From assembly GCA_963851265.1 (NCBI GenBank), contig CAWKNZ010000002.1, positions 1,568,001 to 1,632,000 of the forward strand: a stretch of DNA of 64,000 nt, written 5' to 3'. Shown piece by piece: positions 21,110 to 38,610 of this stretch. Positions within the stretch are counted from its first letter, which is position 1; the number at the start of each line of letters is the position of its first letter. The notes beneath the pieces were generated by a model. It was not told the origin of the DNA. It saw only the letters and a program-made list of their open reading frames with translations, and did no database searches. A program made the position numbers and the translations under genes. The DNA is from an uncultured Gemmatimonadales bacterium. Its GTDB lineage: Bacteria > Gemmatimonadota > Gemmatimonadetes > Gemmatimonadales > Gemmatimonadaceae.

Positions 21110-22501
21110 TCAGCGCCAGAACGGGATCCGGACTGGCGCGGTGTCGCCCGGCGCCGGAGCGCGCCGGGCGGGGTGGACGCCGATCACGTGCTCGCCGCTG
21201 GCGAGGTTCGCCGCGGGAATCAGCATCAAGAACCCGCGACGTTCCGTGCGCGGGTTGGTGAAGAACCGGAACCGGCCGCCCGCGGGTCGGCCGTCGAGCG
21301 TGACCGCGTGGAGTCGCGCGACGCAGGCCAGGATCGCGTCGTCACCGGCCGCTACTCCCGGCGCGTCGTCGTCGTTTTCGGGCGGCCGAAGCGTCGGACA
21401 GACGCGGCGCAGGGCCACGTTGTGGGAGGCGGGCCGATACGGGACGAACAGCCGAACGTACGGGTCGACGATGACGTCGCTCTGGATGCTCGGCAGGGTG
21501 GGCGACGCGTCTGCGGCGCGCATCGAGTCGTACAGGTCGGCCGTGACCACCCCCGGGCGACGTCCGTCGGCGAAGTACGTGTAGTTGAAACGCGCGGGCG
21601 GCGCACCGGGGTCTGCCATCGCCGCGAAGGCCGCCGCGTATGCACCGATGATCCCGACCGACAGCGCCGCGTACGCGACGCGCCGGTTGAGGTTGCTGGT
21701 GAGCACGGCGCCGAGCGAACGCACGCCGTCGGGCGTTAGCGCACCCGCAGCGCGGAGCACCATGCGCACGAAGCGCTCGGGCCGTCCGCCCGGTGCGAGG
21801 TGCGCGCCGCGGCGGATGTCCGTGATCGCCGCCCCGAGCACCGCGATCAACGCGCTGGCGGTGAGGACGCCGAACACGATGAGCGCCGCCTTTACCGGGA
21901 GTGCGACCGAGAGCAAGCCCATGACGACGACGATCGCGGCGAGCAGTCCGAAGCTGGACGCCACCGCGGCCGCCAGGAAGAACCCGGTCGCGAACACCAG
22001 GCTCGCGGCGTCGTTCGCTCGCCCGATAAACGAGGGTAGGGGGCGGACGCGAGGGCGCATGATCTCGGTCTGGATGCGACCGTATTCGCGCTGCTTGTCC
22101 CATCGGACGCCGTGCGGAAACACGGCGTTCACGCCGACGAGCGCCACCCAGTAGCCACGAAGCGCGAGCGCGACCGTGAAGCAGATGATGAGCGCATAGA
22201 GCGCGGCGAGCACCGCCTGCGCCAAGGTTCGCCCGGCGACCGCAGCGGCGAGCGACAGGTGCGGCTCCCAGTGGTGCCAGATGCCCTGCAACCACGGCGG
22301 GATCTGGAACAGCCCGACGAGGACGATCCCCGTGACGAGCAGTTCGAGCTCCCACGCCGGGCTCACGACCTGCGCGTCGACGCTGACAAGCCTCACCTCG
22401 GTCGGCTCGGGCGGCGCCTCGGCGACGGTGTCGGGCGGTTCTCCCGCACCGCGCGGCGGCGCGTACCCGGCGGCGCCGCCTGGGCGCGGCGGCGCGCTCA
22501 C
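21110..22501 (-). CDS. Hypothetical multi-pass membrane protein with a C-terminal soluble domain
   Basis: GTG at 22501 overlaps the peptidase stop (GTGA); about 6 hydrophobic segments (WELELLVTGIVLVGLF, ALRGYWVALVG); ends RIPFWR. Confidence 0.75.
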   Translation of the reverse strand: MSAPPRPGGAAGYAPPRGAGEPPDTVAEAPPEPTEVRLVSVDAQVVSPAWELELLVTGIVLVGLFQIPPWLQGIWHHWEPHLSLAAAVAGRTLAQAVLAALYALIICFTVALALRGYWVALVGVNAVFPHGVRWDKQREYGRIQTEIMRPRVRPLPSFIGRANDAASLVFATGFFLAAAVASSFGLLAAIVVVMGLLSVALPVKAALIVFGVLTASALIAVLGAAITDIRRGAHLAPGGRPERFVRMVLRAAGALTPDGVRSLGAVLTSNLNRRVAYAALSVGIIGAYAAAFAAMADPGAPPARFNYTYFADGRRPGVVTADLYDSMRAADASPTLPSIQSDVIVDPYVRLFVPYRPASHNVALRRVCPTLRPPENDDDAPGVAAGDDAILACVARLHAVTLDGRPAGGRFRFFTNPRTERRGFLMLIPAANLASGEHVIGVHPARRAPAPGDTAPVRIPFWR

Positions 22502-24819
22502 CGCACGGGTGCAGTCGACGCCGTGCGCGCCGACGCGCCGCCCGCGAGCCAGTAGCCGAACCACTGCCGTAGACGGCCCAACCGATCGGCGAGCAGCCAC
22601 GGCTCGCCGCTGCGCGACAACTCGTGCGTACTGCGTGGGTAGCGGACGAACTCGGCCGGTACACCGCGCTTGCGCAGCGACTCGAACCACATCTCCGCGT
22701 TGCCCATCGGCGTGCGGAAGTCGTCCTCGCTCTGCACCAGCAGGGTCGGCGTGCGTACGCGCGCGACGTGGCGCACCGGCGAGAGCGAGTCGTACATCGC
22801 CTGGTTGTCCCACGGCTTGCCGTAGAATTCGAATTCGGTGAGCCCCTGAGCGTCGCTCGCGCCGTACCAGTAGGTCCAGTCGCTGATCATCCGGTCGACC
22901 TGCGCCGCGCGGAAGCGATTCGTCTTCGTCGTGATCCAGGCAGTCATGAAGCCGCCGTACGAGCCGCCGGTGACGCCCATACGCGTGCTGTCGACGTCGG
23001 GCCGCCGCGCGGCCAGGTCGACGGCGTTCATCAGGTCCTGATAGTCCTCCGCACCCCACCGGCCGCGCGTTGCGTACGTGAAGTCGCCGCCGTAGCCGGT
23101 CGACCCGCGCGGGTTGATGTACAGCACCATCATCCCCGCCCCGGCCAGGTTCTGGAACTCGTCGAACCAGTTCTCGCCGTAGTTGGAATGCGGGCCGCCG
23201 TGGATATAAAGCACGAGCGGGTAGCGGCGGGTGCTGTCGTATTCGAACGGCTTCATGATCCAGCCTTCGATCGGCAGCCCGCCCACGCTCGCGAAGGTGA
23301 ACCGCTCGGCGTCGCTGAACGCCACCTCGCGTCGGAGCGCGTCGTTGAAGTTCGTGAGGCGTCGTTCGCCGGTCCCGTCGGCGTTCGCCGCGAAGAGTTC
23401 GGTGGGCGTCGTCGGCCCGGTCGCGACGTAGGCGACGACGTGCGCGGCGGTGTCGACGGTGAGGCCGCTCAGTCTGCGACGTCCGCCGATCACTTCGCGG
23501 ACCCCGCCGCCGCCGGAGCCGACCCGGTAGAGCGCCGTGCGGCCACCCACCTGCGCGCTCATCAGGAGCAGGCGGTCCGACGCCCACGCGAACTGCTCGG
23601 GCTCGTAGCGGAACTCGCCTAACAGATCGCGGACGCGCCCGCTCGCCACGTCGACCGTCGCGAGCCGCGCGGACTTCGTCCGGCCGGGGTGCCAGACGAA
23701 CGCGACCGTCCGTCCGTCGGGCGACCATGCGAGTTGCGCCTCGCTGCCCGGGAGCGCGGCGAGCTTTCGCGGCTCGGCGCTGCCGTCAACCGGAACGACG
23801 TAGATGTCGACGTCATCGCGGTCGACGTCGTCGCGGGCGCGATCGTAGGGCAGGCGCGCGAGCGAGTCGCGCGTGGCCTGTACGAGCGAGTCGCTGCGGA
23901 GTGCGGAATCCCCCACGAACGCGATGAGGCGCCCATCGGGAGAGAGCGCGGCATCGCGATGCGCGTAGGCCGTCGTCGTCAGGACACGCCGCGCGGTGTC
24001 GCCAGGGCTCCACGCATACAGTTGCGCCGGGTGCGCGCGCGGCGATCCCGCCGGGTTGGGGACGAATCCGCGGTCGTTGCTCTTGTACGGGATTTCGTCG
24101 AAGTGACGCCCGTCGAAGCGGCGCGCGTCGATGGGTTGCGTCACCGCGCCGAACGGGGGCCGAGAGACAGCCTGCCGAGCGGCGGCGTTGGCTGGCGTCC
24201 GGCCGGCAGTCCCGGCGCGTGCGGCACCGCGCCCGGTCGAGTCGGTCGGCGGGAGCTCGGCGCGCGCCGTGTCGGAGGTCGGGCGCGTGCTGTCCGACCA
24301 CACGGCGAGGCGGCCGTCGCGCGACCAACTCGCGCCCGCGGGCGGTGCCGACGCAACGCGAATCGGCGCCCCGCCGGCGCTGTCGGGCGAGACCGCGTAC
24401 GTCGCGGCCACGCCGCGCCGTGGCGCGACGCTCACGTACAGGGTTCCGTTCGGGGAGAAACGCGGCGCGGTGACGTCGACGGAGTCTCCGAACCGCAGCC
24501 GCGTCGGCGTACCCGCGCCCGCCGGAACGAGCCAGACTTCGGAGCGGCGCCGGTTCTCCGCCTGGACGACGCGGGTAACGACGACCGCGACGCGCGCTCC
24601 GTCGGGCGACGCCGCCGGAGCAGCGAGCGTCGCGATCTCGTAGGTGTCCGTCGGGCGGAACGCGCGGCGTGCGAGCGACCGGAGCGAGTCGGGCGCGGCC
24701 GACGCGACACGCGGCGCGGGCGCCTGCGCGCGGACCGCGGGCGCATACGCGCCGACCGCGGCGACGGTCAGGACGGTCGCGCGAACGACACGCGAGGGGT
24801 GTGAGAAGGACGGGCGCAT
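22498..24819 (-). CDS. S9 family (prolyl oligopeptidase/acylaminoacyl) peptidase, secreted
   Basis: Signal peptide ...AVRA/Q, PD40 propeller repeats, YIHGGPH, NPRGSTGYG, catalytic GGSYGG, EDDFR and STHELSRSG. Confidence 0.93.
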   Translation of the reverse strand: MRPSFSHPSRVVRATVLTVAAVGAYAPAVRAQAPAPRVASAAPDSLRSLARRAFRPTDTYEIATLAAPAASPDGARVAVVVTRVVQAENRRRSEVWLVPAGAGTPTRLRFGDSVDVTAPRFSPNGTLYVSVAPRRGVAATYAVSPDSAGGAPIRVASAPPAGASWSRDGRLAVWSDSTRPTSDTARAELPPTDSTGRGAARAGTAGRTPANAAARQAVSRPPFGAVTQPIDARRFDGRHFDEIPYKSNDRGFVPNPAGSPRAHPAQLYAWSPGDTARRVLTTTAYAHRDAALSPDGRLIAFVGDSALRSDSLVQATRDSLARLPYDRARDDVDRDDVDIYVVPVDGSAEPRKLAALPGSEAQLAWSPDGRTVAFVWHPGRTKSARLATVDVASGRVRDLLGEFRYEPEQFAWASDRLLLMSAQVGGRTALYRVGSGGGGVREVIGGRRRLSGLTVDTAAHVVAYVATGPTTPTELFAANADGTGERRLTNFNDALRREVAFSDAERFTFASVGGLPIEGWIMKPFEYDSTRRYPLVLYIHGGPHSNYGENWFDEFQNLAGAGMMVLYINPRGSTGYGGDFTYATRGRWGAEDYQDLMNAVDLAARRPDVDSTRMGVTGGSYGGFMTAWITTKTNRFRAAQVDRMISDWTYWYGASDAQGLTEFEFYGKPWDNQAMYDSLSPVRHVARVRTPTLLVQSEDDFRTPMGNAEMWFESLRKRGVPAEFVRYPRSTHELSRSGEPWLLADRLGRLRQWFGYWLAGGASARTASTAPVR

Positions 24820-24921
24820 CGAAAATATTGCCGAGGACGGTGTCGACGAATCGACGTGCGGAACCATCTGCAGGATAGACCCGGCGCGGGCTGGAACCGC
24901 CACCCCGAACGTGTGTATTTT

Positions 24922-25155
24922 GCGTTGTCGCCGCGCCCTGACGTGGCGACGGTCAACGCCCCATGTACCACCCGAATCCGAGGAGGTGATCCATTGTCTA
25001 CTGCCTGTAGTTTCACCCGGATCGCCCGAGTCGCGTAACGACTCAGGCAACCGCCGGCGGTCCGGGTGGACAGGCCGGAGTGAGGCATCGGAGTTCTTGA
25101 CTCCGGTGCCTCACGAGGAAAGGGCTCTCGGCTTGGCGGCCGAGGGCCCTTTTCG
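24922..25155 (+). ncRNA. Candidate structured RNA with a 16S-3'-end complement and a 14-codon ORF
   Basis: Four consecutive stem domains with G-U pairs, AGGAGGTGATCCA at 24981-24993, TTG...TAA ORF at 24994-25038, terminator-like 3' hairpin with T tract; TATTTT at 24916-24921 just upstream. Confidence 0.6.
25119..25155 (+). terminator. Rho-independent terminator-like hairpin
   Basis: AAAGGGCTCTCGGC / GCCGAGGGCCCTTT followed by TCGTT. Confidence 0.7.
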
Positions 25156-25356
25156 TTCCCAGGTGCCGTTCATCGCCACCGTTCGACCGGCGGAGCGACG
25201 CCGCTACGCTCCGGCGCGCACCTCATGATCGTACGTGAGGCACGACTTCCGCCACTTATGCGCAGCCGGTAGCATTGCACCGCGAGCGCTCGCGTCGGCG
25301 CGCTCGGCACGTTCCTTCCCTGCGCCGCGCGTCCGCGCAACTCCCGGCTCCCTCGG

Positions 25357-27165
25357 TTGCTCCTCGGCTCGCGCGCGAACGTGCTTCGTCCGGCGGCCGC
25401 CTGGCGCCTGTGCCTCCCGGCGTTCGTCGCCGTGTCGGCCGGTCGCGCCGCCGCGCAGGGCCGTGCGCCGACCGGAGCCGCGGCCAACGCGGAGTCCGGG
25501 CCCGCGTCGCCCGCTCGCGACGCGGCGAACTCCGTATGTCGGCGGATCGAGAGTCGCACGAACTTGGCCGAACTCTCGGGACGTACGATCAGCTCGATCG
25601 ACGTCACGACCGGCGGACCGCGGTCCTCGCGGCTGCCGTGGCTCGCCCGACTGAGCAGTCGTGCGCACGTGCGAACGCAGCAGACGACGCTCCGCCGGTT
25701 CATCCTCGTCGCACCCACCGACACCGTCGACACCCTGCGCGTCGCGGAGTCGTTACGACGCCTTCGGCGCCTGAGCTACCTCGACGACGTGCTGCTCGTC
25801 GGCTCGGATTGCGGGGCGAGCACGCCGGTGGCCCTCACGCTCGTCGCGCGCGACGCGATGTCGTTCAGGCCGGACGTGCGGTTCAATTCCGCGACGCCGG
25901 TCAACGGGGCGACCGGAACCGCGACGGCGTCACCGAGCAGCTACAGCGTCGGGTTCAGCGAACGGAACCTCCTCGGTACGGGACGCGACGTTCGGGCGGC
26001 CGCCGTCGGCGCCGAACGCCGGAATGGCTTCGTGCTCGCGGCCGGCGACCCCACGGTGTTGGGGTCGCTCTATGGCGTTCGCGCCCGGTTGGCGCGCAAT
26101 CCGCTCGAGAACGCAACAGCGTTCAGCGTCCGCCCGCCTGACCGCGAGCTCGCCGAAGAGTGGCGCGGCGAGTTCTTCGTCGCCAGCACACGGCGCGCGG
26201 GTGCGGCCGCGCGCGGCGCGAGCTTCGCACGGGCGGGCGGACAGGGGCTGCTCGCTCGGCGAATCACGACGGACAACGGAATCGGCGCGGCGACGTTTCT
26301 GGTCGCCGGCGCGGAAGCGGAGCGGACGCGGCTACTCGCCGGACCCAACGCCATTCTCGGCGGCCCATCGAGCGTGCGGCGCGACTTCGCCGGCATCGAC
26401 GTAGGCGCCGGGCGCTATGCCGAGCAGTACCGCGCGGTGTCGTGGCTCCTGCCCGATGCGCGCGTGGTCGACGTGCCACGCGGAATCGAAGGCGAGTTGA
26501 TCGTCGGGCTCGGGCGTGATCGGGCACTCGGCAGGTCGACGTCGCACATGGACCTGTGGTCGGGCCGCATGTGGCTGCCGAGCGCGGGAACACTCGCGGT
26601 CGCCGACGTGTGGGGGAGCGGCTACGTGCACCCCGGCGCGACGGTGATGGGGTCGGCGGTGTCCGGCGGGTCGGCGCGCGCCTCGCTGGCCGGCGTCGCG
26701 CGTCAGCGCGGCGGGTATTTCTACACGCGCATCGCCGCGGAGCGCTTGCTCGCACCGGATCCGGACCAGCAGGCGTTGCTCGGGTTCGATCCGACGGTAC
26801 GCATGGTGCCGACGCGCACGCGGCTCGCGAACACCGCTGTCGCCGCGCTCGTCGAGCGCGACTGGCGCGTCGTCAGCCGCCTCGCGCGCATCAACGTCGA
26901 TCTCGCCGGGTTTGGCGCGGCTTCGTACCGCACGTCGGAACGCATGCCGAGTCGCGACGGCAACGACGACGTGAACGATTTCTCGACCGCGGTGGGCGCC
27001 GGCATCCATGCGGTGCCCAACGCCCTGGGCCGTCCGGCGCTTCGACTCGACTTCGTCATCCCTGTCACGCACGCCGTCGGAGGACGGTCGAATCCCTACC
27101 TCGCCGCGTCGGTCACACCGTGGATCCTGTTCGACCGCTACCGCGACGGCAGGCGCGGCCGGTGA
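25357..27165 (+). CDS. Outer-membrane protein, Omp85/BamA-TamA-like (POTRA-like region plus beta-barrel); start approximate
   Basis: Signal ...GRAAA/Q; VRTQQTTLRRFIL...AESLRRLRRLSYL is POTRA-like; ERNLLGTG motif typical of Omp85-type barrels; LRLDFVIP near the C-terminus. Confidence 0.6.
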   Translation: MLLGSRANVLRPAAAWRLCLPAFVAVSAGRAAAQGRAPTGAAANAESGPASPARDAANSVCRRIESRTNLAELSGRTISSIDVTTGGPRSSRLPWLARLSSRAHVRTQQTTLRRFILVAPTDTVDTLRVAESLRRLRRLSYLDDVLLVGSDCGASTPVALTLVARDAMSFRPDVRFNSATPVNGATGTATASPSSYSVGFSERNLLGTGRDVRAAAVGAERRNGFVLAAGDPTVLGSLYGVRARLARNPLENATAFSVRPPDRELAEEWRGEFFVASTRRAGAAARGASFARAGGQGLLARRITTDNGIGAATFLVAGAEAERTRLLAGPNAILGGPSSVRRDFAGIDVGAGRYAEQYRAVSWLLPDARVVDVPRGIEGELIVGLGRDRALGRSTSHMDLWSGRMWLPSAGTLAVADVWGSGYVHPGATVMGSAVSGGSARASLAGVARQRGGYFYTRIAAERLLAPDPDQQALLGFDPTVRMVPTRTRLANTAVAALVERDWRVVSRLARINVDLAGFGAASYRTSERMPSRDGNDDVNDFSTAVGAGIHAVPNALGRPALRLDFVIPVTHAVGGRSNPYLAASVTPWILFDRYRDGRRGR

Positions 27166-38014: not shown

Positions 38015-38018
38015 GGAA

Positions 38019-38092
38019 TAGCAGGGGAGGGGCTCGAACCCTCGACCTCACGATTATGAGTCGTGCGCTCTGACCAGCTGAGCTACCCTGCC
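38019..38092 (-). tRNA. tRNA with CAU anticodon (probably elongator tRNA-Met; Ile2 not excluded); CCA not encoded
   Basis: Reverse complement GGCAGGGTAGCTCAGCTGGTCAGAGCGCACGACTCATAATCGTGAGGTCGAGGGTTCGAGCCCCTCCCCTGCTA folds as a cloverleaf. Confidence 0.93.
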
Positions 38093-38141
38093 ATCTGGCA
38101 GACCTGCGCCACGTCTGGAGCGGAACGTGGTCCTCATGAAA

Positions 38142-38173
38142 CGAACGGGCCGGCTTGGAAGCCGGCCCGTTCG
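38142..38173 (-). terminator. Terminator-like hairpin between the two tRNAs
   Basis: CGAACGGGCCGGCTT / AAGCCGGCCCGTTCG, followed on the minus strand by TTTCAT. Confidence 0.6.
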
Positions 38174-38175
38174 CA

Positions 38176-38610
<435 letters not shown>

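Follow-up and report, generated by a model that had tools for sequence, protein, structure and literature searches.

The RNA element described here is a real and conserved variant of the rre kind of mini-mRNAs, a known but unexplained kind, which is now found in a new phylum, the Gemmatimonadota. We consider it probable that this RNA of approximately 230 nt functions by engaging the ribosome and not through the peptide it encodes. It lies in a 64,000-nt stretch of DNA, called the window below, and its parts are collected in Table 1. Every feature of the original prediction was found again in the sequence, and its main proposal, a stand-alone transcript selected at the RNA level and built for binding the 30S subunit, was strengthened by the homologues, the covariation and the putative promoter and terminator of its own.

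Table 1. Parts of the RNA element and its two neighbouring genes, in positions of the window
Feature	Position	Strand	Basis
GGAAC, -35-like box of GGAAC-N17/18-GTA	24893..24897	+	12/75 loci vs 1/75 control windows
GTA / TATTTT, -10-like box	24915..24921	+	sequence
P1, 5' hairpin	24922..24959	+	predicted fold
Conserved leader, consensus GCCC-n-ATGT-n-CCACCC	24958..24973	+	two alignments and fold
Extended Shine-Dalgarno (SD); the 13-mer itself is 24981-93	24980..24993	+	pairing with own 16S 3' tail
ORF of 14 codons: TTG start, codon 2 TCT, TAA stop in a hairpin loop (5 nt)	24994..25038	+	
GGATCGCC, anti-SD-like switch motif	25019..25026	+	predicted folds
Long stem in which codons 4-11 are buried; encloses the stop hairpin 25028-44	25003..25075	+	fold and covariation
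Additional 15-bp hairpin, apparently specific to the source genome	25080..25114	+	fold
Intrinsic-terminator-like hairpin with short U tract	25119..25157	+	fold
S9 peptidase gene, divergent upstream neighbour, outside the element	22498..24819	-	Pfam
Omp85-like gene, downstream neighbour, outside the element	25357..27165	+	Atlas lead only

The central part of the element is the extended SD, where the predicted 13-nt perfect complement of the 16S rRNA 3' end is present: 13 Watson-Crick pairs are formed with the 16S tail of the source genome itself (the mature 3' end was deduced from the DNA), and G24980 adds a G-U pair, extending the pairing to 14. The duplex with the tail amounts to -26.4 kcal/mol, compared with -9.2 for the 6-nt core. 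A fifth-order Markov model predicts 0.105 occurrences of the 13-mer per 4.6-Mb genome, and its 12-nt core, GGAGGTGATCCA, occurs three times in the source genome, namely in the element and in antisense in two 16S genes. A degenerate 16S fragment was considered and ruled out, since the similarity stops after the 13-mer. In 26 relatives, each taken with its own 16S tail, 14-17 pairs counting G-U were obtained; the perfect 17 pairs were found in two of them (L081 and L082), both GTG-started, and it is only in GTG members that the first base of the start codon pairs with the 16S rRNA. Members of the phylum differ in their 16S 3' tail: after the anti-SD core the 16S genes of the source genome (C2:820152-820180 and C2:1411480-1411508) have TTAC, while TTCT stands there in 21 and TAAC in 4 of the 26 relatives. 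No co-variation was seen between the 5' flank of the RNA and the 16S tail of its host, and the source genome (tail TTAC) as well as four genomes with the tail TTAAC retain purines which do not extend the pairing.

The full novelty of the element could not be upheld, since it falls into the group of rre mini-mRNAs already published (PMC5711450). According to that report rreB is a Bradyrhizobium mRNA of 165 nt in which 17 nt are complementary to the 16S rRNA, with a GTG start and 14 codons, it co-sediments with 30S subunits and is weakly translated, and exchanging its start codon for a stop stabilised it from 10 to 37 min. A 5'-truncated rreB with 14 complementary nucleotides was mainly not bound to ribosomes (PMC5711450). 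As described there, rreB (Bradyrhizobiaceae) and rreR (Rhodobacterales) are small-protein genes of unexplained function, RreB and RreR are called conserved proteins, and analogues are reported only in Alphaproteobacteria (Hahn et al., RNA Biol 14:1353, PMC5711450). From the SD into codon 2 the source copy is identical to rreB in 18 of 19 nucleotides, and the 10-nt motif GGATCGCCCG is common to both ORFs (comparison with the Table S2 primers, PMC5711450). Our element is probably homologous to rre and probably works like it; 30S binding, weak translation and start-dependent decay were demonstrated for rreB (PMC5711450), and would apply here by analogy.

As far as the rre genes have been described, the resemblance covers a stand-alone small transcript, an extended SD reaching up to a non-AUG start at equal spacing (7 nt after the SD core), a small ORF of 14 codons placed directly after it, predicted sequestration of the SD by the ORF, and a genomic context which is not conserved across lineages. 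The orphan nature, with own promoter and terminator, is in our case read from the sequence. There are differences as well. The element belongs to another phylum and uses UUG, also a weak start, instead of GUG, so that the first base of the start remains unpaired; at least 16 nt of perfect 16S complementarity characterise the rre genes (16-17 pairs), whereas the source copy has 13+1 and, of the 26 relatives, only the two perfect ones reach this length. The SD-ORF hairpin is predicted for the nascent RNA but is released in the full-length fold of the source copy, where the motif finds a second partner in the long covarying stem, constituting a predicted switch. Furthermore, the RNA is longer, it has a 5' hairpin and an ECF-like promoter motif, and its peptide is not under purifying selection, whereas RreB and RreR are called conserved proteins. 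Pairing beyond the 6-nt SD core towards the start was reported to help the selection of non-AUG starts in ordinary mRNAs of S. aureus (PMC13009471); there 2 extra pairs in many normal mRNAs are concerned, as opposed to 13-17 nt in one stand-alone RNA per genome, with a tiny ORF, here.

Regarding known RNA families, Rfam at gathering level recognised only two tRNAs in the whole window, and no family reached its threshold at the element. The best match was RF01867 (CC2171) with 25.9 bits and an E value of 0.0017, below the gathering score of 75; it spans the whole model and is driven by the same SD-start core. Since both the 16-nt length and the Rfam threshold were missed, we filed the element as an rre variant. 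With the same model 16 of 17 Gemmatimonadota loci scored 22-42 bits and one gave no match at E<=1, while an rreB-type locus reached 42, an rreR-type locus 36 and a Brevundimonas locus 91 bits. On these sequence scores the model does not separate the phyla; it covers one alphaproteobacterial subfamily. CC2171 itself is a Caulobacter sRNA, for which Northern-validated expression was described in Methylorubrum (10.1101/2022.01.24.477521). Our search of the literature outside the subscription journals found neither a follow-up on rre nor a description from Gemmatimonadota.

Collection of homologues, which had been proposed together with the original prediction, revealed a wide distribution. By a BLAST-type search the element was detected in 13 of 41 related genomes, including all 4 of the genus. 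A 17-nt pattern was present in 67 of 301 phylum genomes, in one copy each (reversed-pattern control: 0), and a looser pattern, leaving the start and codon 2 free, in 111 of 301 (control: 1). Without one positive genome flagged as unpublished (G084) the tallies are 66/300 and 110/300, and its loci were excluded from all other analyses; three further flagged genomes (G202, G011, G123) contribute to nothing but the denominators and the 16S tally. The start codons of the 122 looser-pattern matches, some of which will be due to chance, were TTG (94), GTG (12), CTG (12) and ATG (4). The working set of 95 loci consisted of 75 loci from the BLAST-type search and the 17-nt pattern plus 20 of the 57 extra looser-pattern rows; as these 20 were picked among TTG rows, start-codon counts in the 95-locus set are biased, and the 68 TTG and 7 GTG starts of the 75-locus set, like its second-codon counts, are partly circular, because the pattern fixed TGTC. 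In the scan of all genomes, 80 stretches were examined among at least 120 matches: most were alphaproteobacterial, 7 were named Gemmatimonadota, and 73 contained an ORF of 10-27 codons. A repeat element was ruled out by the single copy, and the search for signs of mobile spread gave no plasmid match and one short phage match at chance level.

At the level of sequence comparison the ORF is kept and its peptide is not conserved. An ORF of 11-25 codons was present in all 95 loci examined; within the 75-locus set a stop after 11-25 codons occurs in frame in 75 loci, compared with 29 and 14 in the other two frames. The pN/pS values, which are pairwise, uncorrected and non-independent estimates, were 1.06 for 53 distinct long-type ORFs, 0.70 for 10 ORFs of the 14-codon type and 1.02 for 9 of the 11-codon type. 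In the 53 long-type ORFs the third codon positions vary least, and the invariant codons show no synonymous spread. One element, G(A/G)TCGCC, is common to all subtypes (it is absent from 3 loci), and its reading frame is 0 for the 19-24-codon types and 2 for those of 11 and 14 codons. Its distance to the stop is confined, since it begins 15-21 nt upstream of the stop codon in 89 of 92 loci, whereas the distance from start to motif extends from 17 to 45 nt. Two members (L061 and L062) have lost 1 nt ahead of the motif and are thereby frameshifted, and in them another stop lies 16 nt past the motif, a distance like that of the other subtypes.

These data bear on the interpretation offered in the rreB report, that is, an ordinary small-protein mRNA with the 14-residue peptide as product and the ribosome binding site tuning its level. 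Retention of the ORF in 95/95 loci, the length changes before the motif of the long type (64 of 66 are multiples of 3), the pN/pS of the 14-codon subtype and the translation of rreB (PMC5711450) would agree with it. We nevertheless regard it as distinctly unlikely, considering the value of 1.06 with the least variable third positions, the invariant codons lacking synonymous alternatives, the ORF lengths of 11-25 codons around a single motif read in two frames, and the two frameshifted members which stop elsewhere. A tiny-peptide mRNA with a functional peptide, one of the roles originally suggested, is not supported, with a pN/pS of about 1 and the conserved motif in two frames.

The proposed role of the motif follows from the predicted folds. 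On the plus strand 245 nt fold with -139.6 kcal/mol (z -8.12, equalled by 0 of 200 shuffles); the minus strand also folds well (z -6.81), therefore folding alone leaves the strand unfixed. The 13-mer, previously described as apparently unpaired, is predicted to be paired in both forms of the RNA. At full length its partner is the conserved ACCACCC leader upstream, in a weak pairing which leaves the SD an unpaired probability of ~0.35-0.4, while in the nascent RNA it pairs strongly with 25019-26. Within the ORF, G(A/G)UCGCC can form base pairs with GGUGAUC of the SD, and the partner of the switch motif is 24985-92 in the nascent and 25056-63 in the full-length RNA. For the source copy the probability of the SD-closing helix is predicted to fall from 0.99 in the nascent to 0.0 in the full-length form, with the flip about 80 nt past the SD, upon synthesis of 25056-70; the switch comprises 8 bp with two partners, and its states are ~6 kcal/mol apart.

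With the RNA cut just after the stop, the closing helix exceeded a probability of 0.5 in 63 of 87 distinct ORFs compared with 97 of 522 shuffled bodies, and the signal was weaker in the mostly alphaproteobacterial loci (29/64 vs 74/256); the relatives are not independent in these comparisons. In 39 aligned long-type sequences all 273 of 273 cells of this helix are paired, with wobble-type changes only. Since its SD side is invariant, no two-sided change was found in any of its 7 pairs, and 500 of 500 shuffles reach its score. The flip is not universal: 21 of 75 loci are predicted to stay closed at full length, mostly those of the 11-codon type, the motif pairs 3' of the stop in 34 of 75 while the remainder fold otherwise, and no more than 2 of 75 full-length folds leave the 10-nt SD core mostly unpaired. 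For the rreB homologue L241 another segment closes the SD in the best fold. In summary of the models, the motif is predicted to sequester the SD in nascent RNA and to release it in many full-length RNAs, and in the long type it could also close a local hairpin, possibly a reason for its conservation.

The long stem is the part of the fold for which covariation was obtained. In the ten 14-codon members 4 of its 11 pairs have changed on both sides, and the score was reached by 0 of 500 shuffles, a score which relatedness alone can give in 5-25% of cases. Several pair types occur in stem columns of the long type (e.g. CG 18, GC 17 and UA 9 at one position); these pairs were read from each sequence's own fold, a procedure leaning towards pairing, because 3' of the stop the MAFFT alignment of this type cannot be relied on. 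Preference for the own partner ranked in the top 5% in only 43 of 84 cases. That the stop codon always stands in a loop, as in the source copy, was rejected as a general feature (42 of 75 loci), and an extra small helix over the SD and the start, given by RNAalifold on the 14-codon alignment, was set aside, its columns being invariant and showing no covariation. The P1 hairpin was found in the genus and in some members of the family, and is missing in members with the -10 box ~40 nt upstream of the SD. For the additional 15-bp hairpin no further copy was detected in the source genome, nor was a second hairpin seen by eye in nine other folded 14-codon loci.

The strong and stable fold would also suit a trans-acting RNA gated by the ribosome, in which a protein or other RNAs (e.g. 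anti-SD-type sRNAs) are bound by the invariant loop motif or by the SD-like stretch, and translation serves only as on/off switch. The long type fits with this, as its nearly invariant GGGCAA-R-CG-R-TCGC stretch is more than the SD helix needs; the first half of the stretch is, however, missing in the 11- and 14-codon types, including the source copy, and we hold such a role to be quite unlikely.

The putative promoter and terminator are recognisable across the loci by their motifs; the consensus scan listed neither of them for the element. Of 95 loci, 51 have TTG-N17-21-TAnnnT upstream, compared with 0 of 95 control windows. GGAAC-N17/18-GTA was found in 12 loci (the source copy and 11 others), all within the 19 loci of the source genome's own family, and they carry it instead of, or besides, the former motif; transcription of the source copy would start at about 24923-26. 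We take the GGAAC motif to resemble ECF-sigma promoters; this label is a sequence-based lead, because the motif is not enriched at that spacing in the intergenic DNA of the source genome (counts of 15 and 11, within the 4-15 of other spacers, with crude gene calls). The raw counts of GGAAC-spacer-GTA show codon periodicity. In the source genome GGAAC-N18-GTA also precedes genes at C2:172289, C2:1683688 and C1:98610, which by eye are presumably those of an anti-sigma factor, a LolA-like protein and an S41 peptidase, respectively. Of the 73 loci with enough sequence, 69 have a strong hairpin after the stop, compared with 26 of 73 control stretches.

The neighbours were analysed from crudely called flanking ORFs, 118 of 135 of which were scanned with Pfam. 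The upstream one is kdtA-type in 25 loci and the downstream one Rce1-like in 26; otherwise many families occur on both sides. At the source locus the upstream gene had been named an S9 peptidase, an identity confirmed by Pfam; the program-listed ORF of this gene (22498-25050, minus strand) begins at a TTG at 25050 and crosses the RNA gene in antisense, its true start likely being the ATG at 24819. The Omp85-like name of the downstream gene was kept as a lead, since 18-35% of the members in the Atlas clusters of this ORF carry Omp85, but the Pfam search at 1e-4 gave no match.

A leader or attenuator controlling this Omp85-like gene had also been suggested, and a short ORF followed by a terminator ~200 nt ahead of a same-strand gene, together with the frequent Rce1-like neighbour, could be read in this way. 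The downstream ORF is, however, convergent in 17 of the 69 loci with a call (15 of the 17 with a Pfam family), the same-strand downstream neighbours belong to at least 10 different families, and folding of a transcription series gave no structure disrupting the terminator. Attenuation is therefore excluded as a general function, and for the source locus we judge it extremely improbable. On sequence grounds the element is a stand-alone gene with promoter and terminator of its own.

For this probable ribosome-engaging mini-mRNA the following cycle can be proposed. Transcription would run between a promoter and a terminator belonging to the RNA itself, as the conserved motifs suggest. In the nascent RNA G(A/G)UCGCC would pair with GGUGAUC and close the ribosome site, and once the 3' arm has been made the motif would switch partner and the site would open, according to the predicted folds. 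The 14-pair SD could then tightly capture a 30S subunit, and the UUG start combined with the over-long SD would cause slow initiation, as was shown for rreB (PMC5711450). The elongating ribosome would have to melt the long stem, which may free the motif so that the SD re-closes, and it would halt 15-21 nt past the motif; this geometry is observed, its consequence is our suggestion. The outcome might be a self-limiting cycle in which occupancy and turnover track the initiation capacity of the cell, a parallel being that the decay of rreB depends on its start codon (PMC5711450). Its role might be the metering or brief holding of initiating ribosomes, and RNA decay only, a protein on the invariant loop motif, or ribosome buffering are candidate readouts.

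A stoichiometric 30S sponge or hibernation RNA, parking small subunits through the anti-SD, perhaps under stress, was among the original suggestions and is still to be weighed against this cycle. The duplex of -26.4 kcal/mol with the 16S tail, the rarity of ATG starts (4/122), the ECF-like motif ahead of the source copy and 11 relatives, and the finding that rreB without its start codon was still with 30S in a pellet assay (PMC5711450) are consistent with it. It was weakened by the observation that 20-fold overproduced rreB left growth unchanged and was far scarcer than ribosomes (PMC5711450). Furthermore, a pure sponge would need neither a start codon at fixed distance nor a stop tied to the motif, 51/95 members have a housekeeping-type promoter, and the ECF motif is not enriched genome-wide. 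Altogether we find the sponge rather unlikely.

A broader idea, which we put forward as a speculation with less in its favour than the ribosome-engaging role as such, is that rre-type genes are old cross-phylum switches driven by translation, whose dock is closed co-transcriptionally, then opened and reset by translation, metering or parking initiating ribosomes, in the present case under an ECF-type stress promoter. If this were true, they would represent an RNA counterpart of the protein factors of hibernation and initiation control, with the peptide as by-product. The phylum-wide set offers divergence enough to separate selection on the peptide from selection on the RNA, which the rreB report as described lacked (PMC5711450), and it points to the RNA. 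A concrete switch and a fixed motif-to-stop geometry are now named, and the family provides natural material for asking from what length of SD duplex a ribosome can escape.

Several minor observations were made during the searches. Among 43 viral-contig matches to the 17-mer six were rre-like by eye (L087, L089, L101, L111, L115 and L120), the rest being mostly ordinary strong SDs; the six resemble alphaproteobacterial rre genes and are perhaps host DNA beside proviruses. One genome (G067) contains, in addition to its normal rre-type copy, three copies of one 20-nt extended-SD site within 27 kb, each with CTG after it (C2:1253023, 1260952 and 1279763). Two loci (L011 and L014) are identical inverted copies ~4 kb apart on one contig (G023 C168), which is a duplication or an assembly artefact. 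Two Azospirillum records (L224 and L248) have the same SD core with ATG, but an ORF of 59-60 codons. Elsewhere in the window a tandem pair of tRNA genes (38018-38249, minus strand) has the CAT anticodon in both copies, which probably represent different Met/Ile types.
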